NCBI RefSeq assembly: GCF_035510375.1
Contig: NZ_DATKHG010000023.1
Length of the DNA stretch: 64,000 nt
Source: Paenibacillus sp.
GTDB lineage: Bacteria > Bacillota > Bacilli > Paenibacillales > Paenibacillaceae
Strand: one strand, 5' to 3'
The position numbers were made by a program, and so were the translations under genes. Positions 23,253 to 62,006 of the stretch are shown piece by piece; the stretch's first letter is position 1; each line of letters opens with the position of its first letter. The notes beneath the pieces were generated by a model. That model did not search any database. It was not told the DNA's origin and saw only the letters and a program-made list of their open reading frames with translations.

Positions 23253-23272
23253 CGTTTGGGAGTGAAATCAGT

Positions 23273-25320: not shown

Positions 25321-25372
25321 TCCGGGAGTATCGGTCGATCAAAGCGTCCCGGTGCTCCGATGGAAAGGGGAG

Positions 25373-28799: not shown

Positions 28800-28804
28800 A
28801 TCGG

Positions 28805-35694: not shown

Positions 35695-35856
35695 ATGGAG
35701 GTTGTAAAGGATTGGGAGGCGTTGGTTTCCGACCTGAGGCAGCGCATACAAAACGGCGACGAGTCGTGCCGGCCGCTTCTAGGCAAAGCGGAAGCCGCTT
35801 TGAAAGAGGCGCGGGAAAAGAAATCGACGCAGGCGCGGGATTGTCATGGAAGTTAG
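35695..35856 (+). CDS. Small hypothetical protein (53 aa), below the ORF-track cutoff
   Basis: GAGGGG RBS. The 3' end overlaps the start of the hydrolase gene by 11 nt. Confidence 0.35.
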   Translation: MEVVKDWEALVSDLRQRIQNGDESCRPLLGKAEAALKEAREKKSTQARDCHGS

Positions 35857-37446: not shown

Positions 37447-37478
37447 CGCCCATTTTTGCGCTCAGGGAGGTGATTGGA

Positions 37479-39062: not shown

Positions 39063-39326
39063 GTGCGGCATTTGCAATTATACGTCAAAGAAATCTATGG
39101 CGTTTATCAGGTTATCGGCGTTGAGCCGGGGAAAGACGTATATGCTCTGGGCAGCCGGGAGAACGCGCAAGATGCGATTCGCCATGCTTTGGAATACGCC
39201 CGTTTGCTTGGCGTGTCCGAGCAGGAAGTTTATTTTTGCGGGCATTCGATTCCGCAGTTGGCGGTGCTCGGAGCCGGATTTTTAGAATTCCTTACAAAAA
39301 ATGAAGGAGAGGATCGCCATTGCTGA
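39063..39326 (+). CDS. Hypothetical protein (87 aa); weakly similar to 40169..40369
   Basis: GGAG 7 nt before GTG 39063. Preferred over the alternative-frame ORF 39061..39285, which is C/R/W-rich. Confidence 0.4.
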   Translation: MRHLQLYVKEIYGVYQVIGVEPGKDVYALGSRENAQDAIRHALEYARLLGVSEQEVYFCGHSIPQLAVLGAGFLEFLTKNEGEDRHC

Positions 39327-40120
39327 AAAGTCCGATTCGCTGGCAAGGCGGCAAGTCGCGGCTTCGCGAGGACATTATCCGCCGGTTTCCGCCTCATGTG
39401 GTCTATGCGGAAGTGTTCGGCGGCGGGGGCTGGGTGCTGTTTGGGAAAGAACGGTCTAAAGTGGAAGTGTACTCGGACATCAACGCGGAGCTTGTTAATT
39501 TTTTCAGGGTCATTCAAGAGGATTGGGAGTCGCTGGCCAAAAGGTTCGAATGGGCGCTTTATGCCCGCGACGAGTTTCAGCGCATTCTGAACCGGCGAAA
39601 CGAAGAGCGCGATCCCGTCACCCGCGCTTACGATTTTTATTACCGTGTGTATTCCCATTTCGGTGGCAAATACAACGACTGCGACGATTGGGGGTATACT
39701 CGCAGCAAACCGGCCTACGACCTGAGTAAAGTAAAGGAAAAGTTCAAACTGGCGCATGAACGGCTGATCGGGGTGTACATCGAGAACCGTTCATTCGAAG
39801 AAGTTATCCCGCGATACGATTCGCCGGATAGCTTTTTTTATTGCGATCCGCCCTATCTCGGGCTTTCCGGTTATCTGTACAAGTTTGATGAAACGCATCA
39901 CCGGAGGCTGCGCGAATTGCTCGGCGGGATCAAGGGCAAGTTCCTGCTCAGCATCAACGATCACCCGCTCATTCGGGAATGGTATGCGCCGTACGTAATC
40001 GAGAGCGTGGAAACCCGCTATACGATCGCCAAGCAGCAGAAAGGGCGGCAGCCGGCAAAAGAACTGCTCATTAGCAATTATGCGCTTCATGGCGGGCAAG
40101 AAAGCGGGACTACTTCATGA
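39320..40120 (+). CDS. DNA N6-adenine methyltransferase (D12 class, Dam-like)
   Basis: N-terminal SPIRWQGGKSRL, FGGGG and the catalytic DPPY (FYCDPPYL). Confidence 0.9.
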   Translation: MLKSPIRWQGGKSRLREDIIRRFPPHVVYAEVFGGGGWVLFGKERSKVEVYSDINAELVNFFRVIQEDWESLAKRFEWALYARDEFQRILNRRNEERDPVTRAYDFYYRVYSHFGGKYNDCDDWGYTRSKPAYDLSKVKEKFKLAHERLIGVYIENRSFEEVIPRYDSPDSFFYCDPPYLGLSGYLYKFDETHHRRLRELLGGIKGKFLLSINDHPLIREWYAPYVIESVETRYTIAKQQKGRQPAKELLISNYALHGGQESGTTS

Positions 40121-40601: not shown

Positions 40602-42170
40602 TTGCAAGTGGTTTTGTTTCGTCCCCATCAACGCCAGCGGCAAGCTTGGGTCGATCGGCTGCGACAATCGGGTTACGACATCAAATTTGTTCATGACCCG
40701 GAGCGGATGACCGAGGAGACGGATTTTATCGTCATTGATACGGCGGTCGGGAAATGGAAGGACTATGTCCGGCTGCTTAAGGGACGGGGAGCGCCCATTG
40801 TATTGCTGGTGGACAGCGATGCGCAGTTATCGGAGATTGAGATCGCTTCGCTTGGAGCAGTCGGAGCGGTGATGCAGGAGGAGGAGACGGACCGCGTCTT
40901 TGCCAAATTCAAGCGCCCGAAAGAAAGCGGTCTGACGAATCGGCCAGAAGCCGAAACGCTGGCTGCGTTTCCACAGTACGGGAGATCGCTGGTGTTGGCG
41001 GCGGAAGAGTCTTTTTCGATGGAACCGCAACAGGCAGATTTGATTCGTAAACGGGAGAAAGAGTCAGAATCAACGGCCGCCGACCTGGAAAGCGAACAGG
41101 GGATTCAGCGTGAAAAGACAATGGGCAGTACGCTTTCACAGCGAAAAGAAGCAAGGCAGAGATCAGCGGAACGTTTTTCCACAAAGAACATTTCTGAAAT
41201 TCATGAAGATTCCGCCCTTGCTCCAAATGAGGATCCCATGCAGGATGGCGGAATTTCAAAACCGGATCAGCCAGAAGACAGGGAGCAAGGGCTGTGGGAC
41301 AACCTGGTGAAGGGACAACAAATTACAACGGACGAGGAAACAGCGGTGACGCAAGGTGTTCCGCAGTCAACGCCGCGCTTTTTGCCTCCGAAAAGCCGGG
41401 ATCTCCCATCGGTCGCGGCTGTTTATGCGGCCAAAGGCGGTGTGGGCAAAACGACGTTTCTTTTGCACTTGGCTGCGGTATTGGCAAAGGAAGAACGCCG
41501 GGTTTGCGTTCTTGATCTGGATCTGATGCACGGAACGGTAGCTTCTATGCTGCAAATCCAACCGAACAAAACGATCGTCGATCTGGTTCGCCGGATCGAT
41601 GATCCGAAAGCGAGCCGAGCCTGTCTTCTCCAAACGAAGATGGGCTTTTCCATTGTCGCCGCGCCTTTGCAACCTGGAGCGTACCGGATACAGCGGGAAC
41701 AGCTCTTGGCAATCCTGCGATTCTTGAAAGAGGAAACGGACATCGTGCTGATCGATACGCCTGTCCATTTCGACGGCCTAATCAAGTTAGCCTTGGAGCA
41801 GACAGAGCAGTTACTCCTGATGACAACCGATGAACCGGCCAGCATGGAGAGCCTTGTGCGCATGAAGCCGCTGCTCAGCAGCCTTCGGCCGACGCCAGAG
41901 ACTTACACGGTTTGGACCCGACTTACGGAACAGCCGCCAAAGGAGCAGTGTCGTGAGAACATACCGTGGCCGGTGATTTTGGAATTGCCGGAAGATCCAA
42001 CGATCGGCAAGGCGGCTCGGAGCGGACAATTGATCGCAAGTTCGCCTTGCAGTCCGTATCGCCTGCGGGTGAAACAGTTTGCGGATCGATGGCTGGGTAT
42101 GGAGCCGGAACGGTCCGGCTACAAACGGAACCTGTTGATGCGGTTGCTGTCCAACCGGAAGTCCATATGA
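40602..42170 (+). CDS. TadZ/CpaE-like protein: atypical receiver domain, long acidic linker, MinD/ParA ATPase
   Basis: REC-like N-terminus lacking the acidic pair (VVLFRPHQ...FIVIDTAV). C-terminal deviant Walker A (YAAKGGVGKTT) and IVLIDTP. TTG start with GGGAGG RBS. Confidence 0.75.
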   Translation: MQVVLFRPHQRQRQAWVDRLRQSGYDIKFVHDPERMTEETDFIVIDTAVGKWKDYVRLLKGRGAPIVLLVDSDAQLSEIEIASLGAVGAVMQEEETDRVFAKFKRPKESGLTNRPEAETLAAFPQYGRSLVLAAEESFSMEPQQADLIRKREKESESTAADLESEQGIQREKTMGSTLSQRKEARQRSAERFSTKNISEIHEDSALAPNEDPMQDGGISKPDQPEDREQGLWDNLVKGQQITTDEETAVTQGVPQSTPRFLPPKSRDLPSVAAVYAAKGGVGKTTFLLHLAAVLAKEERRVCVLDLDLMHGTVASMLQIQPNKTIVDLVRRIDDPKASRACLLQTKMGFSIVAAPLQPGAYRIQREQLLAILRFLKEETDIVLIDTPVHFDGLIKLALEQTEQLLLMTTDEPASMESLVRMKPLLSSLRPTPETYTVWTRLTEQPPKEQCRENIPWPVILELPEDPTIGKAARSGQLIASSPCSPYRLRVKQFADRWLGMEPERSGYKRNLLMRLLSNRKSI

Positions 42171-42187
42171 AAACAATATGAGAGGCG

Positions 42188-42427
42188 GTGAAAGACATGA
42201 AAGTGCTCGAAGCGGAAGCAGCCCGCCCCATGAACGCAAGAGGCGGCTTGTATGTTCTGATCGAAGGGACGCAAGAGGAGATTTATAAGGGGACGTCGGA
42301 TCGTCTGGCGGTTGAGACCGCCAACCGTCTCGGTTGGAAGGGCGACGGTCAAGCGACCATCGGCATCCCGACACGGGAAGGCGTCGACCTGTACACGCGC
42401 GCGTACTGGTTTCACGAAAAGCGATAA
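42188..42427 (+). CDS. Hypothetical protein (79 aa)
   Basis: Operonic, with coding-like sequence. Confidence 0.45.
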   Translation: MKDMKVLEAEAARPMNARGGLYVLIEGTQEEIYKGTSDRLAVETANRLGWKGDGQATIGIPTREGVDLYTRAYWFHEKR

Positions 42428-42454
42428 GTCGCTTTTTGATAAACAGAAGGGAGA

Positions 42455-43591
42455 ATGATTGAGGCCATGATCAGCCGAAAACAGAAACGAATCATTTTTG
42501 CAGCCATTGTTGGAGGACTGCTGTTGCTCCTGTTTGCGCTGGCTCTTGTTTTGTATTTTCAAGCGAAGCAAGCCAGCTTTCAACAACAGCTCCAGTCCGA
42601 ATACGAAGCGAAGATCAAGAAATCGGAGACGATGGAACAGGCCGCAAAAACAAGGATTTTGGCGGCCGCTCGGAGCATTCCATCCGGAACGACCCTTCAG
42701 GCGGAGGATGTGAAGGCGGTGGAGGTGCCCGCCGATCAGGCGTCTTCCGGGAGTCTCAAGGAATCAAGCGCGGCGGTCGGCAAAATCACCAAGATCGATT
42801 TGCAGCCGAACACCCCGCTCGTTGCTTCGATGCTGTTTGAAGACATGCCGATTGCGAGAGATATACGGATGCAAGAATTTAATGTCATACAGTTGCCTTC
42901 GAATCTGCAAAAAGGACAATTTGTCGATGTTCGGATCAACTTCCCGACCGGAGAGGATTTTATCGTCCTTAGTAAAAAGAAAGTCCGGGAACTGTCCGGC
43001 ACGATCGTTTGGTACGAAATGAACGAAACCGAAATCATGAGGGCTTCCAGCGCCATTATCGACGCCTATTTGCAAGGAGCCAAGCTGTATGCGCTGACCT
43101 ATGTCGATCCGGGATTGCAGGAAGCGGCGGTTGCCAACTATCCGTCCAACCCGAAGGTACTGGATTTAATGCAACGAGATCCGAACATTTTGGAAGAAGC
43201 GAAAACCGCACTCGCCCGAGGGCTCCGTACAACGCTCGACAACAACCTGAAAGCGATGAGCGACACGGACAAAATGCGGGTAACAAGTGGAAGTGTCACC
43301 GTTCAGCAGCAACTGCAAAACGAACGCATTACGACGAAGCAGAATAATGAGTTCCGGTTGAGCGCGCAGCAGCAGGTCCAGCGAACCGCCGTGGAACAAC
43401 AAAGTTCAACGAACCAAACGAAACCGAATCAAAATGAGTCCGCTACTCAGCCGAGTGCGCCGGCCTTGCCCGATCCGGCAATAGAAACGCCGACACCGGC
43501 TCCGGCCCAGAAACCGGGCGATGTCAAAGAGCCGCCCAAAACGGACCGGCTTAAAGATGTGTTCAATCAACCGAAGACCGGCGGTTCATAA
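42455..43591 (+). CDS. CpaB/RcpC-like pilus-assembly protein (TM anchor, SAF domain, Q/P-rich tail)
   Basis: N-terminal TM, then a SAF-type segment (ARSIPSGTTLQAEDVKAVEVP) and a CpaB-like body. Confidence 0.65.
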   Translation: MIEAMISRKQKRIIFAAIVGGLLLLLFALALVLYFQAKQASFQQQLQSEYEAKIKKSETMEQAAKTRILAAARSIPSGTTLQAEDVKAVEVPADQASSGSLKESSAAVGKITKIDLQPNTPLVASMLFEDMPIARDIRMQEFNVIQLPSNLQKGQFVDVRINFPTGEDFIVLSKKKVRELSGTIVWYEMNETEIMRASSAIIDAYLQGAKLYALTYVDPGLQEAAVANYPSNPKVLDLMQRDPNILEEAKTALARGLRTTLDNNLKAMSDTDKMRVTSGSVTVQQQLQNERITTKQNNEFRLSAQQQVQRTAVEQQSSTNQTKPNQNESATQPSAPALPDPAIETPTPAPAQKPGDVKEPPKTDRLKDVFNQPKTGGS

Positions 43592-43605
43592 GGAAGGAGG
43601 CCGAC

Positions 43606-44331
43606 ATGAAACAAATCGTTTTTTTCGGTGCGCCGGACAAAAGCCACCTTCTGCTTGTGTTGGGCAAGCTGCTGACTGCTGCGGGTCTGCGGGTGCTGCA
43701 TGTCGATTCGACGATCGCACAGTCGGCGCAGGGATATCTCCCGCAGTCGGATGAACGGACGGGTGCTTTCGTGACCGAATTTGAGGGATTGGACGTCGCT
43801 GGCGGCTTTATTACGTACAACCAGTTGGATCGCTATATGAAGCAAATGGAAGGCAAGTGGCCGCATTACGATGTCATGCTGCTCGATACGGATCATGCCG
43901 AGTTTGTCAAAGGCCGGGAGTTGGAGGCGTTCGCTCATCGCGTTTGGTGCAGCAGCTTCGAAAAATTGGCGCTGCAGAAAAACGCTGAATTGATAAAGCG
44001 GCTGTGTCTGGCGGAATCCGCCGCGCAGCCGCTGCCGTTTTTCAAGCTGCTGTATCCGTTCGTGCAGACCACAATCACCGAGGCGTATATTCATTCGCAC
44101 TACGAGGATGATCCTGTCCAGTGGCTGGAACCGGTATTCCGCATTCCGCTCGATGATCGGGATGTATCGGCAACAATTGATAACCAACATCACGCCCGGA
44201 TCGATGTGCGAAAGCTGTCCGGGGCCTATATCCAAACGGTATTTTCCATGTCAAGGACGCTGTTCGATATGGACGGGCGAACCGTCAAAACGGCGTTGAA
44301 ACAGGTCAGGAGGAATCGCCGTGGGAGTTAA
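43606..44331 (+). CDS. MinD/ParA-fold protein with a degenerate P-loop
   Basis: IVFFGAPDKSHLL in place of KGGxGK[ST]. The Walker-B-like segment YDVMLLDTD is retained. Confidence 0.5.
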   Translation: MKQIVFFGAPDKSHLLLVLGKLLTAAGLRVLHVDSTIAQSAQGYLPQSDERTGAFVTEFEGLDVAGGFITYNQLDRYMKQMEGKWPHYDVMLLDTDHAEFVKGRELEAFAHRVWCSSFEKLALQKNAELIKRLCLAESAAQPLPFFKLLYPFVQTTITEAYIHSHYEDDPVQWLEPVFRIPLDDRDVSATIDNQHHARIDVRKLSGAYIQTVFSMSRTLFDMDGRTVKTALKQVRRNRRGS

Positions 44332-45154
44332 CGTTGTTTTCTGGAGTCCGGTGCCGGGACAAACGGGCAACACGACGAACTTGGCGGCCGCCGCCGCGCT
44401 GCTTGGTCTTGAATGTTCCTCGCGTTTGCTGCTGTTCGGCCATTTGCAAAGCCGTCGCGCCGTTATGGAACAGGCGTTTATGAAGCGCAGAACAGAGTCG
44501 CGCGAGCCAGGTTTTGCCGCCGATTCAGGCATTGACGCATTAGCGCGACTTGCTCAAAACGGCAAGCTGTCGCCGGAGATGATTCGGGATTACACGTTGC
44601 CGCTGCTTAAGGACCGGCTCGACCTGCTGCCGGGTTCGAATAAGCCGGACAAAACCTTTATCCCCGGCATGAAAGAAGTGCTTCTGCCGTTGTTGGAATC
44701 AGCCAAGCGGTACTACGACCTGATTTTAATCGACGGCGGCAGCGGTACGGGATCCGGATGGACCCAGGAGCTGCTGAAAAGCGCTGATCTGGTCGTCGTC
44801 AGTTTGAATCAAAGCCGCTACGTATGGGAGCGTTTTTTTCAACAACAAGAATTACTGCTGAATGGAAAAATGCGTCTTCTCGTTGTCGGGCAGTACGATC
44901 GGCATTCCCAACATACAGCTAAAAATATCGCCCGACAGCATAGGATGAGCGTCCCGCTCTATCCGGTTCCGCATCTTGCGGCCTTTATGGATGCTTCGCA
45001 GGAAGGCCGTGCGATTGATTTCTTGTTTCGCAACCGCAGCGCATCGCGCGATCATGAAAATCATTTTTTCATGCAATGTGTCCGGGGACTGACCGAAGCC
45101 ATCATCGAACGGGCCGGAATAAACAAGCCGTTTTTCGGCGGAAAGGGGGAGTAG
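44321..45154 (+). CDS. MinD/ParA-fold protein with a degenerate P-loop (Lys replaced by Asn)
   Basis: VVFWSPVPGQTGNTTNLAAAAALL versus the canonical S.KGGVGKTT. YDLILIDGGSG and ADLVVVS are retained. Overlaps the previous gene by 11 nt. Confidence 0.55.
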   Translation: MGVNVVFWSPVPGQTGNTTNLAAAAALLGLECSSRLLLFGHLQSRRAVMEQAFMKRRTESREPGFAADSGIDALARLAQNGKLSPEMIRDYTLPLLKDRLDLLPGSNKPDKTFIPGMKEVLLPLLESAKRYYDLILIDGGSGTGSGWTQELLKSADLVVVSLNQSRYVWERFFQQQELLLNGKMRLLVVGQYDRHSQHTAKNIARQHRMSVPLYPVPHLAAFMDASQEGRAIDFLFRNRSASRDHENHFFMQCVRGLTEAIIERAGINKPFFGGKGE

Positions 45155-45157
45155 CGG

Positions 45158-47029
45158 ATGCTTGGTCTATTGAACGGACTGCTCATCCTTGCGCTTCTTC
45201 TGCTATCGGCCTCGCTGTTTTACTTCCGTATGAGCGGGCGCAAGTTGGAGAAGCCGCCGGAAGAGCGGATCTATTCGATCGACGCAATGACCGATTATGT
45301 CAAACAAACGCTGCATGATCTGACGAGCAGCAACCTGTATGATCTCGGTCTATCCGAAGAGGAGTTCCGGCGTCGGAAAAACAAGCGTGCGGAACTGAAG
45401 AAGGCGCTGCGCGGATGCACGTCCGGGGATATGCGGGACAAGGCGTATGTGAAGCAGTTTTTGGCCGACTTGCTGGTTCAAAACTGCAAATTGGATGAAA
45501 CGAACATCAATCGGATTATCCCGTTCGATGATCCATACGAGCTTTCGCCGCAGGATCAATTTGAAATTTTAATGCATCAGTACAAGAAACGCTATCGTCA
45601 CGATGCGCTCAGCGAACTGATTCACAAGTACAAGTTGGACCGGCCAAAGCTCGGGATAGAGGATGGTCGCACCGAATCGTACCGGATTACGGCCGAGGAA
45701 ATCCATGACATTTATAAAAAGGAAGCAAAGAGGCTGCATTTCGAGGACAAGCTGCATATCGTGGCGCAGCGTATTTACCAGCAATACAAGGGATTTAGCG
45801 TCGTCGATGAAATACGGGATATGAAAATCGACGGCGTCTCCGGCGGCGTATCCGGTTTGCCGCCTTCCGTATGGGAGGGGGAATGGGAGTTGCAGGCCGA
45901 TGCGCTGCTGCGCGAAGTTCCGAAGTCCCACGACAGCGTCTGGATTTTCTACAAAGGAAAATCCATTCATCTTAACTTCCTCTCCTTCGGTTCGGAGAAC
46001 GAACTGAAGCGGGTCTGTCAGAACATCTACAAGCACAATTATCCCGGCCAATTATCGGAAGCGAACGGCTTCAAAGTAAATGAGATGGCAGACGGCTCTC
46101 GTGTGGTTGTGCTGCGCCCCCGGTTTTCAGAATCGTGGGCGTTTTTTGTGCGAAAATTCGATGTGCAAAGCGCCACGCTGGAGCAACTCATACGGGATGA
46201 TAACGCTCAGCTCCCCATTGGGTTGATTGCTTCTCTTGTCAAGGGGGCGCGGATTACCGCTGTCACCGGCGCGCAGGGGAGCGGGAAAACGACTCTGCTG
46301 ATGGCGATGGTCAAATTCATTTCCGCCACGTTTACGATTCGGGTGCAGGAGATGAGCTTCGAGCTTCACTTGCGGAAAATTTACAAGGACCGCAATATCC
46401 TCAGTTTCCGCGAGACGGAAACCATCTCAGGGCAGGACGGGCTGGACATCCAGAAAAAGACGGACGGCACCGTGAATATTCTCGGCGAAGTGGCGACTGA
46501 TCCGGTTGCGGCGTGGATGATCCAGATGGCGCAGGTCGCTTCGCTCTTTACGCTCTTTACCCACCATGCCAAAACGTTTCGCGATCTGGTGTACTCGCTC
46601 AGGAACTCGCTGTTGAAGACCGGCGTGTTCACAAACGAAAATGTCGCCGAACAGCAGGTAATCAGCGTCATTAATTTCGACATTCATCTCAAACGCGATG
46701 GGAACGGACATCGCTATATCGAGCGGATTACCGAATGTGTCCCGGTCGATCAGGAAATGGAGTATCCCGCTCCATACCGAGAGTGCGATAAGCTGGAAGA
46801 AAAGATGGCCGCGTTTATGAATACAGCTGTCGAATATTTCCGGCGTTCCACTGACCGAAAGTTGTACGAAGCCCGAAATGTGGTCGAGTGCCGTGACGGC
46901 CGCTATGTGGCCGTGCATCCAATATCGGAACGAAACGTGCGAGAGATGCAGGAGCATATGTCGGAAGCGGATCGTGCAGCATTTCAAGCGTTTCTGGCGG
47001 CGAATTGGGGTGAGCGGGATGGAACTTAA
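45158..47029 (+). CDS. CpaF/TadA-VirB11-family secretion ATPase (divergent), with an N-terminal TM segment
   Basis: Walker A (VTGAQGSGKTTLL). GEVATDPVAAWMIQMAQV...THHAKT corresponds to the GEvR..Ea..m.qA..TGH region of T2SSE ATPases. Confidence 0.7.
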   Translation: MLGLLNGLLILALLLLSASLFYFRMSGRKLEKPPEERIYSIDAMTDYVKQTLHDLTSSNLYDLGLSEEEFRRRKNKRAELKKALRGCTSGDMRDKAYVKQFLADLLVQNCKLDETNINRIIPFDDPYELSPQDQFEILMHQYKKRYRHDALSELIHKYKLDRPKLGIEDGRTESYRITAEEIHDIYKKEAKRLHFEDKLHIVAQRIYQQYKGFSVVDEIRDMKIDGVSGGVSGLPPSVWEGEWELQADALLREVPKSHDSVWIFYKGKSIHLNFLSFGSENELKRVCQNIYKHNYPGQLSEANGFKVNEMADGSRVVVLRPRFSESWAFFVRKFDVQSATLEQLIRDDNAQLPIGLIASLVKGARITAVTGAQGSGKTTLLMAMVKFISATFTIRVQEMSFELHLRKIYKDRNILSFRETETISGQDGLDIQKKTDGTVNILGEVATDPVAAWMIQMAQVASLFTLFTHHAKTFRDLVYSLRNSLLKTGVFTNENVAEQQVISVINFDIHLKRDGNGHRYIERITECVPVDQEMEYPAPYRECDKLEEKMAAFMNTAVEYFRRSTDRKLYEARNVVECRDGRYVAVHPISERNVREMQEHMSEADRAAFQAFLAANWGERDGT

Positions 47030-49088
47030 ATTGCTGTTCTCCCTCGTGCTTGGCGGGGCGGTCGTGTTTTTCCTTGCCTCCGTCCTCCTATTCAAATGGC
47101 TGTCCCGAAAAAATACGGGCGCCGGTTCAATCCGGGAATACGAGGAACTTCGACTTCCCGGAAAAGCCACGAACAAGCGCGCCGTGCACAGTTTGTTGCA
47201 ACGTATTTACGCGGCAAACGAACGGGTTCCTTTGCTTCGCCGATATCTTACGACCATCCGCAAGCGGCTGTCGGCGCTGCAACCGTACGACGAATGGAAG
47301 CTGCGGCTGGAGACGATCAAGATTGCGCTTGCGGCATGGGGCGTCCTGTTTGCTGCCGCCGTTCCAGTTATCCTGTTCATCCGCGACCCGATGACGCTTC
47401 TTATGATCGCAACCGGTCTCAGGGCGCTTCACGGGATGATCGCAGACGTATTCGTTCACCGATTGGAAAACCGGCTGCTCCGCCAGCTTCGCCACTTTAT
47501 GGCCGATGTGCGGCACCACTATCACCGGCACGGCATGGTGGAGGAAGCGATCTACGACGCATCAGATGCCGCGCCGTATGAAATGTCTTTGCACGGGCAG
47601 GAAGTGTACGCGGCGCTGACCGCCAGCCATCCGGAAGAAAAACTGGAGCAATATTATGAGGCTGCGCCGAATCGGTTTCTCAAAGGACTGGCCGGCATAT
47701 CGCATCTGGTCAAAGAATACGGCGACAAGACGCTCCAGAACGGGTCGCTCTACTTAAAAGCGCTCGGACGGCTGACGACCGAACTGAATCTGGACATTTT
47801 GCGACGGGAGAAGCTGAGCTTCTTGCTGCAGGGACTGACGGCGATTGCGCTCATCCCGGTTATGTTCACGAAGCCGATTGAAAGCTGGGCGCGAAACTAC
47901 TTCCCGGCGATGGACGATTTTTACGCAGGCAAGCTTGGCTGGATCACGAAAATGGTCATCTTGCTGATCATTCTCGGCTCGTATGTGCTGCTTCGCAAAA
48001 TGCGGGAATTGGACGGTATATACAAAGCAAGTCGCAAGCCGTGGGAACAGAGGGCTTACGATGTTCCAGGGGTGCGGCGGGTCATCGACCGGATCGTTCC
48101 CGAACCCGGCGCGCGCGAAGCCTCCCGCAGTATCATGCTGCTCAAGGAAACGAACTCGCCGCTCCGATTGGAGTGGTTTTTTGTGCAGCGCGCGGCAATA
48201 AGCGCTCTGGCTTTTTTGATGACGCTCGGATTGTTTGTGACGCTGCACATCGTCTCCAAACACCAACTTCTTTACGCGCCGGTTAAGCCGGACACGATGT
48301 TTGGCCGCCTATCGCCGCAGGAAGAAGCCAAAGGCAGGGAAGCGGCGGCGCTCGACCGCCGGATCATGGCGGATGTGAAAGGGGTGAAAACCAAACTCTC
48401 GGAATCGATTTTGACCGAACTGCGAAAAGACCCGCGGCTTGTACGGAACGAGGCGCAGCTTCGCGCCGCAGCAAAGCGCATCCTGAACAAAATGGATGCG
48501 GTGAGCGGCGAGTACCTGAAGTGGTGGGAGGTGATGCTCGCTTTGTTGATCGGCTGGGGCGGCTACTATGCGCCGGTCGGCGTCTTGTTGTTCCAGCGGC
48601 AGATGCGGCATATGGAGATGAAGCACGAGGTCGATCAGTTCCATTCGGTGATCGCCATGCTGTCCGAAATGGACCGGATGTCGGTGGAGCATGTACTGGA
48701 GTGGATGGAGCGGTTCGCGCTTATTTTCAAGGCGCCGATTCAGCATTGTTTGCTTCATTATGAGCATGGCGCCGAGCAGGCGCTTGAAGATCTGAAGGAA
48801 GAAGCGCCGTTTCTTCCGTTTGTCCGCACCGTGGAGAAGCTGCAGCTGGCGGTTGAAAAAATTCCGATCCGGCAGGCATTCGATGATTTGGAATCCGAAC
48901 AAGCTTTTGCCCAGGAGCAGCGCAAGCAGGATTATGAACGGCTGATCGAAACGAAAGCGGGATGGGGGAAAATGATCGGCTTCGCGCCGATGATGTCCCT
49001 TATTTTTGGTTATCTCGTCTTTCCGCTCGTCTATGTCAGCTTGGATCAAATGTCCGTGTATTACGAGCAAATTCAGCGGATCCAGTAG
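47019..49088 (+). CDS. Large polytopic platform protein, apparent TadB-TadC (T2SSF x2) fusion
   Basis: 689 aa. Two halves each pair cytoplasmic helical segments with TM pairs, as in GspF/TadB/TadC. The start overlaps the ATPase 3' end by 11 nt. Confidence 0.55.
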   Translation: MELKLLFSLVLGGAVVFFLASVLLFKWLSRKNTGAGSIREYEELRLPGKATNKRAVHSLLQRIYAANERVPLLRRYLTTIRKRLSALQPYDEWKLRLETIKIALAAWGVLFAAAVPVILFIRDPMTLLMIATGLRALHGMIADVFVHRLENRLLRQLRHFMADVRHHYHRHGMVEEAIYDASDAAPYEMSLHGQEVYAALTASHPEEKLEQYYEAAPNRFLKGLAGISHLVKEYGDKTLQNGSLYLKALGRLTTELNLDILRREKLSFLLQGLTAIALIPVMFTKPIESWARNYFPAMDDFYAGKLGWITKMVILLIILGSYVLLRKMRELDGIYKASRKPWEQRAYDVPGVRRVIDRIVPEPGAREASRSIMLLKETNSPLRLEWFFVQRAAISALAFLMTLGLFVTLHIVSKHQLLYAPVKPDTMFGRLSPQEEAKGREAAALDRRIMADVKGVKTKLSESILTELRKDPRLVRNEAQLRAAAKRILNKMDAVSGEYLKWWEVMLALLIGWGGYYAPVGVLLFQRQMRHMEMKHEVDQFHSVIAMLSEMDRMSVEHVLEWMERFALIFKAPIQHCLLHYEHGAEQALEDLKEEAPFLPFVRTVEKLQLAVEKIPIRQAFDDLESEQAFAQEQRKQDYERLIETKAGWGKMIGFAPMMSLIFGYLVFPLVYVSLDQMSVYYEQIQRIQ

Positions 49089-49107
49089 CAACACAATGTT
49101 TAGAATC

Positions 49108-49137
49108 AGCCTTTCCTGTTGGAAGGCTATTTTTTTA
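49108..49137 (+). terminator. Intrinsic terminator/attenuator between the platform gene and the first small anchored protein
   Basis: AGCCTTTCC-tgtt-GGAAGGCT followed by ATTTTTTTATT. Confidence 0.7.
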
Positions 49138-49173
49138 TTCCCCAAAATTATTGTAAAAGGAGAGAAACGATCC

Positions 49174-49653
49174 ATGTCCAACGCACAAAAAGCACTGGTA
49201 ATGGCCGCAGGCATTTTCCTCGCTATTGCCCTTATTACACTGGCGGTTGTATTGTTCATATCCGCCCAGGATTCGACCAAAGCGGCGCAAAGCAACTTCA
49301 GCAACATTCAAACCGAGCTGTCGCAAACAGCCTTCACCGTCTATGACAATACGCTCGTTTCCGGAAGCCAGGTCGTCAACGCGCTGCGCAAGTTCAGCGA
49401 TCAGGATCAATTCGGCATTCAAATCGTGACGGGGAAAAATCCGGCGGGACAATGGTACGGCAAGGTAATCAATACGGGCGTTCCGATGGACAGCGTTACG
49501 TACGGTTCCGTTGTCGGTCCGGCCCCCGGACGGCTCGATCAGACGATGGATGAAGCGGACATCAACTATGTCAATCCGAGCGGCAAGTTCCGGGCTCAGC
49601 TTGTGAAGGACAGCAGCAACGTGATTCGCGGCATTGTGTTCCGTCAGCAATAA
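49174..49653 (+). CDS. N-terminally anchored small protein (159 aa), pilin-position protein without a class III signal motif
   Basis: AAAGGAGAG RBS. MSNAQKALVMAAGIFLAIALITLAVVLF followed by a soluble beta-rich-looking domain. A GC-rich hairpin follows the stop codon (49667-49697). Confidence 0.6.
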   Translation: MSNAQKALVMAAGIFLAIALITLAVVLFISAQDSTKAAQSNFSNIQTELSQTAFTVYDNTLVSGSQVVNALRKFSDQDQFGIQIVTGKNPAGQWYGKVINTGVPMDSVTYGSVVGPAPGRLDQTMDEADINYVNPSGKFRAQLVKDSSNVIRGIVFRQQ

Positions 49654-49725
49654 GAAACAGGGTGAATCTGCCCCCGCGCTTATGCGCGGCGGGCAGGTTC
49701 GCTGTAAAGAGAGGAGGACGAGCGC

Positions 49726-50127
49726 ATGAGCCATTCCGTGCGAACGATGATCGACATGAGCTTTGCTTGTCTCGTTTTTGTGATGGCGGCCACGGTCGGG
49801 TTGCTGCTGTTTCAAAGCGGCGCGGCTGTGCTGGAGACGACTTATGTGTCGGGAAAAGCGCAGGATCGCAGCGTAAAACCGACGCTTTCCCCGATAGCCG
49901 GAGACGGCAGCGTGTCCGGTGCGGAAGTTTTGCAGACGATCGCCCATATCGCGGATATCGGAACGGAGATCGCAGTAGATGGGGTCAACTATGCCCCGAC
50001 AATGGAACGGGAAGAAATCGCTGCTTCAGCTGTTCGAGTGAATGGCCGCTTTACTCCTGTGTATGAACGCGGTCGGGATGGGCAGTTGCAGCGAATCGTC
50101 TTTGTATCGCGCGGAGGTGTGCGATGA
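49726..50127 (+). CDS. N-terminally anchored small protein (133 aa)
   Basis: Single N-terminal hydrophobic helix (FACLVFVMAATVGLLLF). Overlaps the next gene. Confidence 0.55.
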   Translation: MSHSVRTMIDMSFACLVFVMAATVGLLLFQSGAAVLETTYVSGKAQDRSVKPTLSPIAGDGSVSGAEVLQTIAHIADIGTEIAVDGVNYAPTMEREEIAASAVRVNGRFTPVYERGRDGQLQRIVFVSRGGVR

Positions 50128-50672
50128 ATAGTTTTTCCAAGGTATTTGCCATTCTTATTTCCATTTTGCTTTTGTACGTCTTCCCGATTTCTGCCACGTT
50201 CAACCAGCAGGATGACGTATCGGAGCTGGTTGCGCTGCGGGCAACGACTTCGTTTGTCGATGCGGTCAGGGACAAGGGATTCATTACCCCGACCATGTAT
50301 AACGACTTCTTGCAAGCGATACATGCGACGGGCAATACGTTTGATGTGCAGATGGAACACGGGCAAAAGCGTTACATTCCGGTGTATGACGATCCGGCGC
50401 GTCCGGATACGTTTCGGAACGATTACACTGTTCAATATGATAAGTTTTACAACGCACAAATTTTGCCGGTGCTGTTCCCGGACAGCGCTGCGGGCAAGGA
50501 CGATCCGAAACGCCGCTACAAGTTGCAGGCGGGCGATACGTTTTATGTGGTTGTAAAGAATACGAACCGGACTAACGGTACAATCCTTCATGATTTTCTG
50601 AATAACGCCAGCAGCCCTCAAGAAAAAATCTTCATTCCCTACGGAGGCGTTGTCCGAAATGAAGATGATTAA
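50124..50672 (+). CDS. N-terminally anchored small protein (182 aa)
   Basis: N-terminal helix (VFAILISILLLYVFPI). ATGA overlap with the upstream gene. Confidence 0.55.
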   Translation: MNSFSKVFAILISILLLYVFPISATFNQQDDVSELVALRATTSFVDAVRDKGFITPTMYNDFLQAIHATGNTFDVQMEHGQKRYIPVYDDPARPDTFRNDYTVQYDKFYNAQILPVLFPDSAAGKDDPKRRYKLQAGDTFYVVVKNTNRTNGTILHDFLNNASSPQEKIFIPYGGVVRNEDD

Positions 50673-51639
50673 CTGGGCGATTGTAGGGGTATTGATTCTG
50701 CTTCCTTTTTATGTGATCAATCGGACGGATACCGAGACGCAGCGGCGGATGATGATTTCGGAGCTGCGCTATGATGCAGCGCTGGATACGGCGGTGGACG
50801 ATGCGGCGCAAGCGCTGCTTATCAATGTCGACCAGCGGCAGGAAGCCAGGTATGAATCGGCCAAACGGGTGCGGGTGAACAAGGAGGAAGCCATCGATTC
50901 GTTTTACCGGACGCTGTACATGAACTTCGGCATCGCGGAAGATACGATTGCCCAAGGCGTGTTGAACCGCTATATTCCGGCGGTAATCGTCATAGGCTAT
51001 GACGGGTTTTGGGTGTACGCCGAAGAAGAGTTTGCCAACGCGGCCGGCGAAACGGAAATACGCCCGGTGTGGGGGCCGAAGAAGCCATACGCTTATGCCG
51101 ATACACTGGGGAACAGCGTGTCTTTTACGCTGGATGATTATGTGACTGCGTACGAAGCCGGAAGCCGGACATGGCGAGAGGGGTTCCGGTCGGAAATCCA
51201 AATAACGACCGCAATTCCGCTTTTGCGCGATGCGGAAGTATTCGAACAGGTGCGGCGCAGCACGATTGTAAACGCCATCCAGAATGAGCTCGCGTTCCGA
51301 ATTAACCGGCACAACCAATACGCATCGCGGTATGGGATCTCATACACATTTACGCTGCCGACAATCAGCGACGAAGAATGGAACAATACGGTGAACGATG
51401 TCGGCGTCATGGCGTTTGTCCAGGGCATTCCAATGGGACGCAAAACGTATAACAACTATGCGCTGGGCGGCAGCCGGGTATTGAAAAAGCCGGTGATTAT
51501 CGGGGCGGTTAAAGAAGGCAAAAAGGTGTATTACCGCAGTGCCTGTGCTTTCCCATACCCGGTAGAAGAAACGTTTGCCAGTGAAAAAGAAGCTTCACAA
51601 AAAGGGTATATGCCGCTGCCATGCAGCAACGATCCCTGA
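50659..51639 (+). CDS. N-terminally anchored protein (about 326 aa)
   Basis: GGAGG 11 nt before ATG 50659. N-terminal helix (INWAIVGVLILLPFYVI). Confidence 0.55.
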   Translation: MKMINWAIVGVLILLPFYVINRTDTETQRRMMISELRYDAALDTAVDDAAQALLINVDQRQEARYESAKRVRVNKEEAIDSFYRTLYMNFGIAEDTIAQGVLNRYIPAVIVIGYDGFWVYAEEEFANAAGETEIRPVWGPKKPYAYADTLGNSVSFTLDDYVTAYEAGSRTWREGFRSEIQITTAIPLLRDAEVFEQVRRSTIVNAIQNELAFRINRHNQYASRYGISYTFTLPTISDEEWNNTVNDVGVMAFVQGIPMGRKTYNNYALGGSRVLKKPVIIGAVKEGKKVYYRSACAFPYPVEETFASEKEASQKGYMPLPCSNDP

Positions 51640-51770
51640 TTCATCCCTGATAAATCGAAATTCATTTTCGCAGGGGTGGACAGGTGGGCACAGGGATTAT
51701 ATCATGGAGGCACAACGTCGATAATTTCCTGATATTCTCAATAATTCTCGAATAAAGGAGTGAACCGAGC

Positions 51771-52877
51771 GTGAAAAAATGGGTATGCGCAAGCTTGGCG
51801 TTGATGATGTTATTTGGACTTATGACCGGGATTTCCAAAGCGGCGGCAAACGCGCCAACGTTTGTCAGCGTCGTCATGGACGGACAAAAGATCTGGTTTC
51901 CCGATGCGCAGGCATTTGTTGATGAAAACAACCGGACACTCGTTCCGGTCCGCTTTGTCGCTGAAAAGATGAATGCCAAAGTGGGTTGGCAATCGGAGAC
52001 GATGACGGTGCCGATCGAGCGAGGCGACCAGCAAATCCAGCTGACGATCGGTGAAAACAAAGTGATTGTCAATGGCAAAGAGGCGGCTTTTGACACGCAG
52101 GCGATTATGAGCGGAGGCAGAACATTCGTCCCGCTGCGGTTTGTAAGCGAGGTGCTGGGTGCGGAAGTCAAGTGGGACGGTTCGACATCGACCGTATTTA
52201 TCTCAACAAAAGAAGATGCCGAGGCGAAGTATGACCAATGGGGCCGCCTGATGCGTACAACGGACCTCCCGAAAAACGCGAAGGATTATCCGTATATTTT
52301 AGATGATATGCCGAATGAGATGTATGAGTTGGGCTATCCGTATTCCAATCCTGAGCGAAGCAAAGTTTCTGCTGTTCTGTACGAAACCATTCCAGAATAT
52401 AACAAGCGAAATGTAGATATTTGGATGAACCGTCTTAAAGATTTCGGTGCGCTGTGGCTGAATGTGGACTACAAGACCATCGACGATAACTGGGCACAGG
52501 CTCTTTTCGCTACGAAAATGCAAAATTCCAATGCGGAGTTGAAGTATATCCAACGCTATGTAGATTGGGTAAAGGAAAATAAAATTCAAATAGAAGGATA
52601 CCTTGATCCAGAGCCTTCCATGATATTTAACGATGGCTTCGGAGCAGACTATGTACGGTCAAAGTTTCGCATTAAATTTAATTCTTTTAAGGAAAGCAAG
52701 GATTTACTTTATGATACATGGTTTCCGAGTGACGAGACCTTTGATAAAAATGAGTGGTATGAAGGGGTTGCGGACATAAAAATGGGAACGAACGTAGGGG
52801 GAGACTGGGGAAGTACGTTAAAGGTTGCTCCCAGCGCCAGCTTATTCTATAACCACTTGATTAAGAAGGTGGAATAG
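51771..52877 (+). CDS. Secreted protein with a copper-amine-oxidase N-terminal (stalk) domain plus an unknown C-terminal domain
   Basis: Signal peptide, then NNRTLVPVRFVAEKMNAKVGW...GGRTFVPLRFVSEVLGAEVKWD, the repeated motif typical of Cu_amine_oxidN1. GTG start. Confidence 0.75.
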   Translation: MKKWVCASLALMMLFGLMTGISKAAANAPTFVSVVMDGQKIWFPDAQAFVDENNRTLVPVRFVAEKMNAKVGWQSETMTVPIERGDQQIQLTIGENKVIVNGKEAAFDTQAIMSGGRTFVPLRFVSEVLGAEVKWDGSTSTVFISTKEDAEAKYDQWGRLMRTTDLPKNAKDYPYILDDMPNEMYELGYPYSNPERSKVSAVLYETIPEYNKRNVDIWMNRLKDFGALWLNVDYKTIDDNWAQALFATKMQNSNAELKYIQRYVDWVKENKIQIEGYLDPEPSMIFNDGFGADYVRSKFRIKFNSFKESKDLLYDTWFPSDETFDKNEWYEGVADIKMGTNVGGDWGSTLKVAPSASLFYNHLIKKVE

Positions 52878-52879
52878 GA

Positions 52880-55800
52880 ATGTCTGAGAAAAAAGCATAT
52901 AAACGATTATTGTGCATGCTGCTGGCATGCATTTTTTTATTCCCATTCATTTTATCAAGTCAAGTTCATGCAGCTCCACCGGAGATTTGGACAAGAGATG
53001 GAATGATCAATTTCTCAATAACAAGCACAGCTGCAACTTCGTCCATCAAATACAGAACAGTAGGCTGGACGGTGCGAAGGGATCAATTATGTTCGAATAC
53101 AACGCCAAAGCAGTGCGGTGATCCGAGAAGCGGCAAATACGTTTCTTTTTTAAATCAACAAGTGCGTCAAGTAGGTCAAGATCCCAATCCGCCTATTCCT
53201 GGGGCGCCATTAACCACAATTTATGAAGTAAGTGAAGAACTTGTAACAAAAGGAATGTGGCAGGCGGGGATGGGCGATATCCAGGACAATGATGATTTGT
53301 ATCTTTATGCCATCATGGTCTCAATTAATGGCGACGGCTCGGTGCGTAAAGGGCCTTTCTATACGTTGGAAGAGATCAAGCGTGCCGAAGGATGGCGTTA
53401 TCCGGACGATCTGGACGATTATTTCGGTCTCCATGTTCCGTATCGAAGCGCAGACTTTCCGGTGGACGTTATTGCTAAAACCGAGGACGGCAAAGTGATT
53501 AATAAGCCGGATGTCACGTTTCTCAAGGGCAAATACAAGGTAGGAGAAACGATCAACCACGAGTTTCCAACCGCCATCGAGGACGGCGGGAAGACATACA
53601 CGATCGTCCGCTCGTATTTATCGCCCAAACAAGACCCGTCGCAGAAGGATTGGGAGCAGGAGAACCCGGAAACGAACCCGAAGGTGCGCACTCGCAGCTT
53701 TACCGTTCATCTTGGCGGTACGGACGCTATCGCCGAATACAGGGAAAGCAATCCGGTGAAGGCGATGTTCCTCACGGATAAAGGAGAGAAGCTCCAAGGG
53801 GATGAAGAACTGGAGCCGAAGAAAACGGAGGAAGAGGCCAATTACACCTTCCCTGCATCGCTTACTTACAAAGGGGATACGTACGAAATTAACCGCTCCT
53901 ATATCACGAACAACACCGACCCGAACAAGGAACTCTTTGTTCAGGAAAAGAACGATCCGAAGCTGCGGGAACGGTCCATCACCGTTGCATCCGGCGGCTC
54001 TAACTTTATCGGCATTTATAAAATCCCCTCGCCGGTGACGGTCGCGTCCCGTATCCTAGCCCCGGATACAGTTGAACAGTCCGTCAATAATGTCGAAGGG
54101 GATTTTATTTTTGAGGCGGAAGCATCAGCCAACCTGAAATCGTACGAAATCACCGACATTCAAAATGCCGCGCTAGTTAACCCAAGCGACCGAACCGGAA
54201 CGCTTAGCGGAACAAAGGATGGGAAAACAATTCCCATCAAAATCCCGTTTTCTTCCGGCGACAGTCTGACGGTGCAAATCACGGTTATCGTCAAAGATGC
54301 GCTGGATCAAAGCGGCGATTCCACAGCGAAGCATACAGTGAAAAAATCGGATGGGGGTCAGCCGCCAACCGCAGGAACGACGCAAGAGGCCGAAGCGATG
54401 GACCCGAGCGCAACGGGCGTCATTCGCGCGGATCAGCGCGGAGCGGAGAAGTTCGATGTGATGAAGGGAATTCCGACCTCGGAGAGCCTGTACGTGGACG
54501 CTTTGTCGAAAGCGTATTTGTACCGGAACGAGTTCGCCCAAATGACCGGCGCGAAGCAATATCCGATTCAAGTGAGTAAAACGTATACGCTGACGTGGAC
54601 GGAATCCTATACCGTTTCGGGCGCGGATGGCAAGTCGACAACGGTTTACGTGCCGCGCTCGGCCACGCAGACGGTGACCAAAAGCTACACGGTGGAACGC
54701 AAGTACAGCTACTGGGTCATCAACAATCTTGAAGTGTATGGCATTCAAAAAGCCGACTTTGCCAATTACGCGCTGCCTTCAGGAAAAGTAACGTTGCAAC
54801 CGAACGGTTATACGCCGCCAAACGTGTCCGCCACTCACGATACTTCGTTGGATGCGCATATTACCGATCCGTTCTTTTCGAATGTGACGCTTCCCGGACA
54901 GACGATTTCCGGCGGATCCAGCCGGCCGTCCGTTCCGAACGAGGATTGGAAGAGCGTAGCGGAGAAGGCGATCGGAAAAATCAAGGTGAAAAACGACTCG
55001 CTCGTCTTCAACGGAACAACGGTGATGGACAACCAGACGGTGGAGGAACAGGCTCCGGCGCCAGGTACGATTCCGGCTCCCCCGACGATCGGGCAGGATG
55101 TGCTATACGGGAAAGGCTACATGATCGATTCCGGCAAAGTGAACAAAGCCAACCAGCCAAGCTCGGGTACGATATCTTATTCGCTCGTCAAAGGCATTAA
55201 CGGCGGGTCGAATCAAACGTTTCCGATTAACGGCATCAACACCGTAACCGTGCATACGCCGATCGTCAACTATGCGTCCGTTTCGGATGACAAGGCGCAT
55301 AACCAGAAGACACAACCGACCTCAGGGCGATCGGCGCTCATTTTGGACCGACCGTTTACCGTAACCGTCCCGACCAGCGGACAGCACCGGGACATTCCAG
55401 GCTACGGCAATCGGGATTATGCGAAGTACACGAAAGAGAAGCAAGTCTGGTTCCCTTTTGACGTGTACAGCGCCGACAAATCGACGTTCATTCCGAAAGA
55501 AACGTGGATATCCATCCCGGTCGGGCAGTCTCAGACGACATTTTTTCTGCCGGTGTGGGTCGATGAAGGCAACTATGACGCGCTGTTTCGCACCTTTGCA
55601 GAAAACAGCCCGCAGGCCTCCTTCGGTACCCAGATGAACGCCAATCTGGAGGTAAACAATCACGTTGCCACGCAGGTCGTTCCGGTGGAAGTCATTGGCC
55701 GCCTATATGATTTCCGCATCACCGACATCGCCGACTATAACTGGGAGACAGTATTCCGGACGCAGAAAGGGAGCGCTGCATCAACCGGAAATGCTTATTG

Positions 55801-57829: not shown

Positions 57830-57875
57830 GAGGAGCATGCAGTCGGTCGTAACATTTTAATTGGGAGGATTGTAC

Positions 57876-58599: not shown

Positions 58600-58693
58600 C
58601 GATTGCTGCGCTGCCCGCCGGATTCGGCGGGTATTTTTCTGCCCGGAACCACGCGGCAATCGGATGGATGGAGATGAAGGGGGAAATTCAGAA

Positions 58694-61928: not shown

Positions 61929-62006
61929 GAAACAAAGGATAGCGACCTAATAATGAAGGGCAATAGCCTTATGTTAAGACAGAAGGAAAGCGAGGGAGGG
62001 GGAAAA

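Follow-up and report, generated by a model that had tools for sequence, protein, structure and literature searches.

The stretch analysed here, 64,000 nucleotides of contig NZ_DATKHG010000023.1 from Paenibacillus sp. (assembly GCF_035510375.1; hereafter the window), carries an operon that may encode a divergent relative of Tad pilus machines, embedded in a Tcp/Tn916-type conjugative gene train. The operon comprises 13 + strand genes (40602-56710). An initial annotation had delineated the first eleven (40602-51639) as a co-directional block with overlaps or short gaps, and these genes are real: they are spaced by −23 to +85 nt, a GGAGG-type (Shine-Dalgarno) ribosome-binding site lies upstream of every one of the eleven starts and their products have conserved orthologues. 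The block was drawn too short, since two more genes co-travel with it in most related loci. Relatives of the operon's ATPase were collected by scanning one genome per species, which yielded at least 486 loci, and 83 loci were classed by their flanking genes (10-kb flanks) into the clades described below. The conserved unit in relatives, established directly by this comparison, consists of a CpaB-like protein, two MinD-fold proteins, the ATPase, a 689-residue membrane protein and four small proteins (sm1 to sm4), and usually extends to a wall-binding protein of the Cu_amine_oxidN1 or SLH type and to a DUF5704 protein of 700-1300 residues.

The predicted motor is a CpaF/TadA-family secretion ATPase (45158-47029, +) with the P-loop GAQGSGKTT, which begins with a transmembrane (TM) helix (residues 1-27) followed by an unusual extension of about 260 residues. 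CpaF is its only significant solved relative (PDB, 3e-11), and the Walker A, Asp box, Walker B and His box motifs of the two proteins align in register, which directly establishes the identity of the ATPase and bears out its initial description as a divergent CpaF-family member. The protein scores 24.4 bits against the Pfam T2SSE profile, for a cut-off of 24.9, and several orthologues carry a precomputed PF00437 match; its best NCBIfam match is TIGR03819 ('TadA family conjugal transfer-associated ATPase') at 38 bits, far under the cut-off. Judged from these alignments, its kinship with CpaF is genuine, though distant. One related locus (L052) harbours a second ATPase-family open reading frame (ORF) downstream.

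The platform position is occupied by a 689-residue polytopic membrane protein (47019-49088, +), predicted to span the membrane with 7-8 TM segments and to fold two helical domains of about 130 residues each (all-helical model, predicted local distance difference test (pLDDT) score of 83). Its gene adjoins the ATPase gene in every case, in the loci as well as on plasmids. The family counts 1228 clusters at 50% identity, and some of its UniRef names read 'GspF domain'. A short motif (G..AL..L..E.P..F) seen by eye in the protein was not counted as T2SSF evidence.

The first gene of the conserved core encodes a bitopic SAF-domain protein (42455-43591, +) with a CpaB/RcpC/FlgA-like N-terminal part, present in 81 of the 83 loci. 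One TM helix (residues 10-41) and the SAF match (2.3e-11) support its CpaB-like assignment; against TIGR03177 it reaches 44 bits for a cut-off of 71, with only model positions 5-99 of 262 aligned. The C-terminal tail is Q/P/T-rich, and no RcpC C-terminal domain was detected in this protein. It is followed by two MinD/ParA-fold pseudo-ATPases. The first (43606-44331, +) lacks the Walker lysine and reads GAPDKSHLLL where GKT is expected, and the second (44321-45154, +) has a degenerate P-loop (PGQTGNTT). The loss of the Walker lysine agrees with the ruined P-loops noted initially, whereas the fold assignment rests on weak matches (E of about 0.01) obtained with family profiles: MinD 4v02 (E 0.011), Etk, BceF and ParA in the PDB for the first protein, and ParA 3ea0 (E 0.011) and MinD 1ion in the PDB, together with TIGR01968 (0.0016), for the second. 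Extra copies of both genes occur upstream of the CpaB-like gene in two chromosomal loci (L067 and L071), and an extra copy of the second alone in L060.

A further pair of genes (40602-42427) lies at the head of the operon. The larger encodes a MinD/FleN-class ATPase (40602-42170, +) with an intact, deviant Walker A motif (KGGVGKTT) and a 270-residue N-terminal extension. Pfam families AAA_31, CbiA, ParA and MipZ match it at 1e-10 to 6e-14 (AAA_31 6e-14), and residues 270-495 match MinD in the PDB at 1.7e-11. Its initial designation as TadZ-like holds for this MinD-like domain and its AAKGGVGKTT P-loop; the receiver-like N-terminal fold was judged by eye, and the protein reaches 33 bits against TIGR03815, well below the cut-off of 154. 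The TadZ-like gene is confined to clade A loci (L004-L012 and L057) and is missing from the chromosomal clade and from the clade with ParA and ParB genes. As ParA and ParB hold the same position in clade B, it may encode a partition-type ATPase; the protein could position the machine or serve as the element's partition ATPase. Its companion, a 79-residue protein (42188-42427, +), co-travels with it, had no family match in Pfam or NCBIfam and is 60-88% identical across clade A, the only loci in which it occurs. This conservation in the nearest relatives indicates that the small ORF is real.

Downstream of the membrane protein, four + strand genes encode small proteins with one N-terminal hydrophobic helix each, as initially described: sm1 (159 residues, 49174-49653), its paralogue sm2 (133 residues, 49726-50127), sm3 (182 residues, 50124-50672), which is N-terminally anchored or secreted (TM residues 1-28), and sm4 (329 residues, 50650-51639), which is N-terminally anchored and has two conserved C-terminal cysteines. 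The best-conserved protein of the module is sm1, with 82-96% identity across clades A and B compared with 68-91% for the ATPase, and its N-terminal 60 residues are more conserved (79%) than the rest (59%). Its sequence shows an invariant glycine (G13) followed by a hydrophobic stretch, with no glutamate at +5, and an AlphaFold2 model (pLDDT 82) predicts a 53-residue N-terminal helix (residues 3-55) and a small α/β domain. Comparison of sm1 with sm2 by hhalign gave a probability of 97% (E 3.6e-11 over 131 columns). The sm3 and sm4 genes are kept in 71 and 77 loci, respectively; no family match was found for sm3, and none for sm4 in Pfam or the PDB, including by profile against the PDB. Orthologues of the 159-residue, single-TM sm1 (P0212, P0217, P0223 and others) are named 'ABC transporter permease' in NCBI and UniRef, almost certainly a mis-annotation that has spread through Paenibacillus genomes.

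The two additional genes of the operon encode proteins with Sec signals: a wall-associated Cu_amine_oxidN1 protein (51771-52877, +; Pfam 2e-36) and a 1276-residue DUF5704 protein (52880-56710, +; DUF5704 3e-76) that is a candidate adhesin or cargo of the machine. In other lineages, an SLH-domain protein takes the position of the Cu_amine_oxidN1 gene, and BLASTP detected no homology between the two types of wall protein outside their anchor domains. In Paenibacillus, Cohnella, Thermobacillus, Lysinibacillus and Alkalihalophilus, a Cu_amine_oxidN1 or SLH protein and a DUF5704 protein are encoded downstream of the core. The DUF5704 gene holds this position in most loci, including those of P. larvae and P. 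macerans, and some chromosomal loci have no recognisable copy within 10 kb. A sequence search of the PDB returned no solved relative of the DUF5704 protein, and our literature search found no paper mentioning the domain. In some element-borne copies (L010, L027-L030, L034, L036 and L091-L093), an inserted surface-complex cluster lies between sm4 and the Cu_amine_oxidN1 gene, with genes for RCC1+WxL, DUF916/WxLIP_PGBD and WxL proteins. A consensus scan placed a terminator-like hairpin with an 8-bp stem and a T-run (49108-49128, +) between the 689-residue protein gene and sm1, which is a possible attenuator or processing site, and a promoter-like site (51677-51705) lies ahead of the Cu_amine_oxidN1 gene. 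Together, these two features hint that sm1 and the surface proteins are differentially expressed.

Genomic settings of the module

The operon is part of one continuous + strand gene train that starts at about 25 kb and in which Pfam identifies a Tcp/Tn916-type gene set. It comprises a coupling protein resembling type IV coupling proteins (T4CP; 25265-27727; TrwB_AAD_bind 4e-9), TcpC (28466-29623; TpcC 1.5e-19), TcpE (30161-30880; 2.4e-12), a VirB4 ATPase (31174-33666; AAA_10 3.5e-51) and an M23 cell-wall hydrolase (35846-36805; Peptidase_M23 3.6e-33). A relaxase-type Replic_Relax gene (27921-28799; 2e-16) and, at the distal end of the train, a tyrosine-type integrase gene (61884-63026; Phage_integrase 2e-34) are both present in the window. 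These matches confirm that the block lies inside a Tcp-type conjugative gene train, as first proposed. The label 'TcpH' attached to the 512-residue product of 33663-35201 (+) fits as far as its TM count goes, which describes a polytopic, TcpH/VirB6-like protein, and has no Pfam match behind it.

The ATPase relatives belong to Paenibacillus, Cohnella, Tumebacillus, Effusibacillus, Marinicrinis and other hosts, several genomes having two copies. The ten clade A loci (ATPase identity 79-91%) carry the TadZ-like and 79-residue protein genes upstream of the core. Where the flank is long enough, clade A loci (L004, L009-L012 and L057) also show the VirB4, TcpH-like, M23 and D12 methylase genes in the order seen in the window. 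The order VirB4, TcpH-like, M23, methylase, TadZ-like, module is thus kept in at least six other Cohnella and Paenibacillus genomes, and we therefore consider the arrangement to be one element rather than two chance neighbours; the co-occurrence of the module with Tcp-type genes, raised as a question initially, is borne out by these loci.

Clade B (37 loci, ATPase identity 68-77%) has ParA, ParB and two small genes upstream, and its type IV secretion system (T4SS) is of the CD1110/CD1115 type, different from that of the window. In P. validus (L016), a MobC-relaxase-PcfB set lies immediately 3' of sm4. The clade B module often directly follows an rlmCD/rumA-type methyltransferase gene, and the same string of a TrpR-like gene, a cobaltochelatase gene, a diacylglycerol kinase gene and this methyltransferase gene precedes the element in L017, L025, L028, L032, L035, L040 and L044. 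This repeated string suggests that the element integrates specifically at the 3' end of that last gene. In clade B, the 10-kb flanks reached through sm1 homologues end within the DUF5704 gene.

Clade C (23 loci, ATPase identity 57-64%) has a gene for a Hanks-type Ser/Thr kinase upstream and is flanked by housekeeping genes (HAD phosphatase, Fpg, endonuclease IV, thioredoxin, ABC ATPase, ThiF and response regulator) whose synteny extends over many species. As judged from this synteny, many Paenibacillus have clade C as a native locus of the chromosome. The remaining 13 loci (ATPase identity about 57-70%) share no common upstream gene; L050/L079 and L058/L063/L064 have housekeeping flanks, and L023 (73%) is a truncated clade B contig. 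A conserved chromosomal location independent of conjugation genes is thus found for the core without the TadZ-like gene, while the arrangement in the window still constitutes one integrative and conjugative element (ICE). In a neighbour-joining tree of the ATPase, clades A and B are contiguous sister groups beside the chromosomal versions.

Homologues of the ATPase and the 689-residue protein also co-occur, always adjacent, on 34-35 large plasmids of the PLSDB collection (thresholds of E<=1e-20 for the ATPase and E<=1e-3 for the platform), and T4SS components are present on all six plasmids inspected. Downstream of the module, the Cohnella herbarum plasmid carries DUF3991-TOPRIM, MobC, relaxase, PcfB, VirD4-like (CD1115), PrgI and VirB4-like (CD1110) genes. 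Plasmid pTHECO01 (Thermobacillus) has a T4CP and two Replic_Relax genes, C. botulinum pFI1111E1 a DUF87/VirB4-like gene just upstream, and Butyrivibrio pCY186 a VirD4-like gene in the same gene train. On pBsph (Lysinibacillus), Replic_Relax and T4CP genes lie across the origin and PrgI, DUF87, T4SS and M23 genes at 49-60 kb. For pBpOF4-01 (Alkalihalophilus), the T4SS evidence is mating-pair formation (MPF) typing only. The idea that the module replaces the VirB4-type channel where only a T4CP and a relaxase are nearby was rejected, as pBsph has its PrgI, DUF87, T4SS and M23 genes elsewhere. DUF5704 follows the core on the Cohnella herbarum plasmid, pBsph, pTHECO01 and pBpOF4-01 and is not annotated on pFI1111E1 or pCY186.

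All 34-35 module plasmids bear the MOB-suite label 'non-mobilizable', which was rejected as informative given that several have PGAP annotations for relaxase, VirB4-like and VirD4-like genes; the Firmicute transfer systems of these plasmids appear to escape MOB-suite typing. Genes for GGDEF (diguanylate cyclase) and/or HD (phosphohydrolase) proteins adjoin the module on three unrelated plasmids, pFI1111E1 (L087), pTHECO01 (L088) and pBpOF4-01 (L095), a neighbourhood compatible with control of surface organelles by cyclic di-GMP (c-di-GMP). The pFI1111E1 region also includes a signal peptidase I gene and a cell-wall hydrolase gene.

Altogether, the module is linked to T4SS/relaxase backbones of at least three unrelated lineages, on the same strand and inside the transfer-gene train. 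Both its occurrence in three genomic settings and this recurrent T4SS linkage are observed directly. The combination presented as novel at the outset is not unique, because other ICEs and plasmids have the core beside Gram-positive T4SS genes of unrelated lineages. As far as its distribution tells, the module is not specific to ICEs and has been recruited repeatedly by conjugative elements.

Elsewhere in the window, chromosomal-type genes occupy positions 1-19000 (transporters, a two-component system, malic enzyme and PrkA-DUF444-SpoVR). The 20089-25027 stretch, which separates the SpoVR side from the coupling-protein gene, holds an ISL3 transposase gene and genes for a short, 557-residue P-type ATPase and an ABC exporter; it may either belong to the ICE as its left portion or have been inserted separately. 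Two orphan DNA methyltransferase genes, of the C5-cytosine (37470-38819, +) and D12 N6-adenine (39320-40120, +) types, separate the T4SS genes from the module. No restriction enzyme was seen with them, and they probably serve the ICE as anti-restriction cargo; the D12 methyltransferase gene is kept in clade A loci. Small DUF genes fill the interval from the DUF5704 gene to the integrase gene (56.7-61.8 kb), among them two paralogous DUF7678 genes (57861-58178 and 58664-59014) and DUF4259, DUF6809 and DUF6036 (nucleotidyltransferase) genes. Neither a tRNA gene nor the element ends (att) were found in the window, its sole direct repeat being a probably fortuitous 15-bp match at 19177/63583, and the right end of the element may lie beyond base 64000.

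A putative type IV filament machine and the alternatives

We regard as evenly balanced the proposal that 42455-56710 encodes a very divergent type IV filament machine of the Tad kind, adapted to a monoderm, thick-walled cell and presenting a DUF5704 adhesin. In our reading, it adds to the type IV filament class a new form, widespread and uncharacterised, that is native to Paenibacillaceae. The CpaF-family motor, the CpaB-like and MinD/TadZ-like partners and the Tcp-type gene train uphold the original picture of a Tad-like machine in a conjugative element; its platform, its pilin and its uniqueness did not hold up.

The membrane-anchored CpaF-type ATPase, presumably a hexamer, would drive the adjacent polytopic membrane protein, which would draw the small bitopic proteins out of the membrane to stack them into a short fibre or pseudopilus. 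The main subunit would be sm1, a candidate major fibre or pseudopilus subunit, with sm2, sm3 and sm4 in minor or tip positions. A row of four bitopic proteins is in keeping with pilin or pseudopilin sets, and the long N-terminal helix predicted for sm1, its paralogue sm2, the stronger conservation of its first 60 residues and its overall conservation, which resembles that of wall-embedded pseudopilins of the GspG kind, fit this role. A conduit through the wall may be formed by the SAF-domain CpaB-like protein, and the two MinD-fold pseudo-ATPases may scaffold or position the motor. The fibre would present or release the Sec-exported wall-binding and DUF5704 proteins as an adhesin. On ICEs and plasmids, by analogy with R64, TP114 and PAPI-1, the machine would most likely promote contact between donor and recipient or between cell surfaces, and so form or stabilise mating pairs; in the Paenibacillus chromosome, the same machine would serve the host. 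The filament, the roles of the individual small proteins, the adhesin cargo and the role in mating are what we infer from this gene set.

Several observations weigh against this proposal. The initial annotation had interpreted the 689-residue protein as a TadB-TadC fusion, for which we found no support: T2SSF (PF00482) matched none of 43 family members at E<=5, the family profile had no match among PDB sequences, Foldseek with the predicted model gave a best E of 0.36, hhalign against E. coli GspF and HofC gave a probability of 0.3%, and no internal duplication was detectable. Profile searches thus placed the ATPase just under the T2SSE cut-off, with CpaF as a relative, and left the platform without a T2SSF match. 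A G/FxxxE or Flp G/xxxxEY motif is absent from all four small proteins, sm2-sm4 share no motif, and no Pfam pilin family matched any of them. The structural comparison suggested for the anchored proteins was run with the sm1 model, and Foldseek retrieved no solved pilin (best match NTF2-like, E 0.35). No prepilin peptidase (Peptidase_A24) was found in the scanned window ORFs or related loci, although a host gene elsewhere is possible. Because neither a prepilin motif nor a prepilin peptidase was found, a pilus is something we infer.

Weak domain matches in the sm1 family (of 41 members, 6 match PilN_bio_d and 3 match T2SSM, E 0.016-0.04) raise the option that sm1 and sm2 could be alignment-complex proteins instead of fibre subunits. 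Their bitopic architecture and paralogy are compatible with the PilN/PilO/GspM type, although PilN, PilO and GspM were not among the top Foldseek matches of sm1. The link to conjugation, for its part, is drawn from recurrent synteny, and the existence of the chromosomal clade C implies that the machine is independent of the conjugative element and not intrinsically a conjugation device. Finally, deletion of putative Flp/Tad genes, which may or may not belong to this locus, had no motility phenotype in Paenibacillus sp. NAIST15-1 (PMC5072692).

The clade C loci also fit a rather unlikely but serious alternative, namely that the module is a cargo organelle for adhesion or biofilm formation, which benefits the host through surface or plant attachment or aggregation and hitch-hikes on elements with no role in DNA transfer. 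A native, syntenic core with housekeeping flanks in many Paenibacillus is what such an organelle would predict, as are the WxL/DUF916/RCC1 surface-complex genes inside the operon of some element-borne copies, the GGDEF/HD neighbours and the distance of about 50 kb between the pBsph T4SS and the module. It accounts less well for the repeated embedding of the module in transfer-gene trains beside at least three unrelated T4SS/relaxase backbones and for the T4SS components on six of six inspected plasmids. A more ambitious form of the filament proposal, which we put forward tentatively and consider doubtful, is that the module represents an unrecognised type IV filament branch with its own platform family and non-canonical subunits without a dedicated prepilin peptidase, repeatedly recruited by elements of Bacilli and Clostridia as a mating-pair organelle, in effect a 'conjugative pilus' of monoderms with a DUF5704 adhesin.

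High conservation is typical of wall-embedded pseudopilins such as GspG, and sm1, the most conserved component, could likewise be a non-exposed subunit of a wall-crossing device resembling a type II secretion system (T2SS), in which a short pseudopilus piston, with no long pilus, would push the DUF5704 and wall-binding proteins through peptidoglycan. The set of one major and three larger minor proteins, in a size order like that of GspG-K, the classical Sec signal peptides on both downstream proteins and the co-occurrence of DUF5704 with the core across genera are consistent with such a device. We nevertheless think it improbable, as neither a pseudopilin N-terminal motif nor T2SSF was found, the ATPase is nearest to CpaF and not to GspE, and the DUF5704 gene is unrecognised within 10 kb of some chromosomal loci.

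Tad pili serve transformation in Micrococcus luteus. That the module is part of a DNA-transfer or uptake route, with the ATPase acting as a VirB11-like component of the T4SS or the fibre taking up or guiding DNA, is very improbable despite the TIGR03819 match far below cut-off, the physical linkage to T4CP and relaxase genes and the Flp-pilus-dependent transformation of a Gram-positive (PMC4322843): whole operons occur without any T4SS in chromosomal loci, general Pfam scans revealed no ComEA/ComEC-like genes in the block, and every module plasmid inspected has its own VirB4-like or T4CP genes, which indicates that the module does not replace the channel.

Gram-positive conjugation is taught as pilus-free and adhesin-based. 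If the proposed filament machine is active in mating, this textbook picture would need qualifying, and the machine would be a means of addressing host range and liquid transfer in hosts that include Paenibacillaceae, Lysinibacillus, Butyrivibrio and the neurotoxin-type plasmids of Clostridium botulinum. The 689-residue protein family (about 1,200 clusters at 50% identity), sm1-sm4 and DUF5704 form a large, coherent and uncharacterised gene set.

Relation to known systems

The module shares with Tad/Flp systems a CpaF-family motor, a bitopic SAF/CpaB-like protein, MinD-class partners, a similar operon organisation and a set of small N-terminally anchored proteins after a polytopic membrane protein. 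It differs from them by the TM anchor and 260-residue extension of its ATPase, a platform without a T2SSF signature, two P-loop-less MinD-fold proteins and an operon that includes the giant DUF5704 protein and a wall-binding protein; moreover, it yielded neither a Flp-like pilin nor a TadE_N motif nor a prepilin peptidase. Catalogues of type IV filaments require a recognisable platform and pilin and would therefore be expected to miss this system, as deduced from the method in PMC6668835. Incomplete Flp/Tad-like loci in which pilin and platform were not identifiable have been reported in Paenibacillus sp. NAIST15-1 (Kobayashi et al., PMC5072692) and, by description only, resemble the chromosomal clade in behaviour.

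Among Gram-positive conjugation regions, the tra regions of pXO2, pAW63 and pBT9727 likewise contain a secretion-superfamily ATPase, described in PMC1196294 as single VirB11 homologues; compared with that description, the operon studied here adds CpaB-like, platform-like and pilin-like genes. These three plasmids showed no match to the module ATPase at E<=1e-20. A review of B. cereus conjugation mentions VirB11 once and pili not at all.

A partial precedent for the combination initially presented as novel is provided by the Sulfobacillus thermotolerans plasmids pL15 and pY0017 and the integrated Kr1 element, whose conjugation backbone is reported to join MinD-like, CpaF-like (TadA) and TadB/TadC-like genes to those for relaxase, TraG-like T4CP, VirB4-like protein and lytic transglycosylase (PMC6803676). 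In Sulfobacillus, the platform is recognisable as TadB/TadC, unlike that of the module, and a DUF5704 partner was not reported. The Sulfobacillus plasmids gave no match to the ATPase or the platform in the plasmid collection at the thresholds given above. On these comparisons, they are a partial, conceptual precedent but a different family.

The pili of R64/IncI (thin pilus), TP114 and PAPI-1 are canonical type IVb pili of diderm hosts, equipped with PilQ, PilR, PilS, PilV and a prepilin peptidase, and are experimentally proven. The module, in contrast, resides in a monoderm host, has components unrecognisable by standard profiles and is known from genes alone. What it would share with these systems is the presence of a second filament-type machine in a conjugative element beside a VirB4-type T4SS, together with a proposed role in mating-pair stabilisation.

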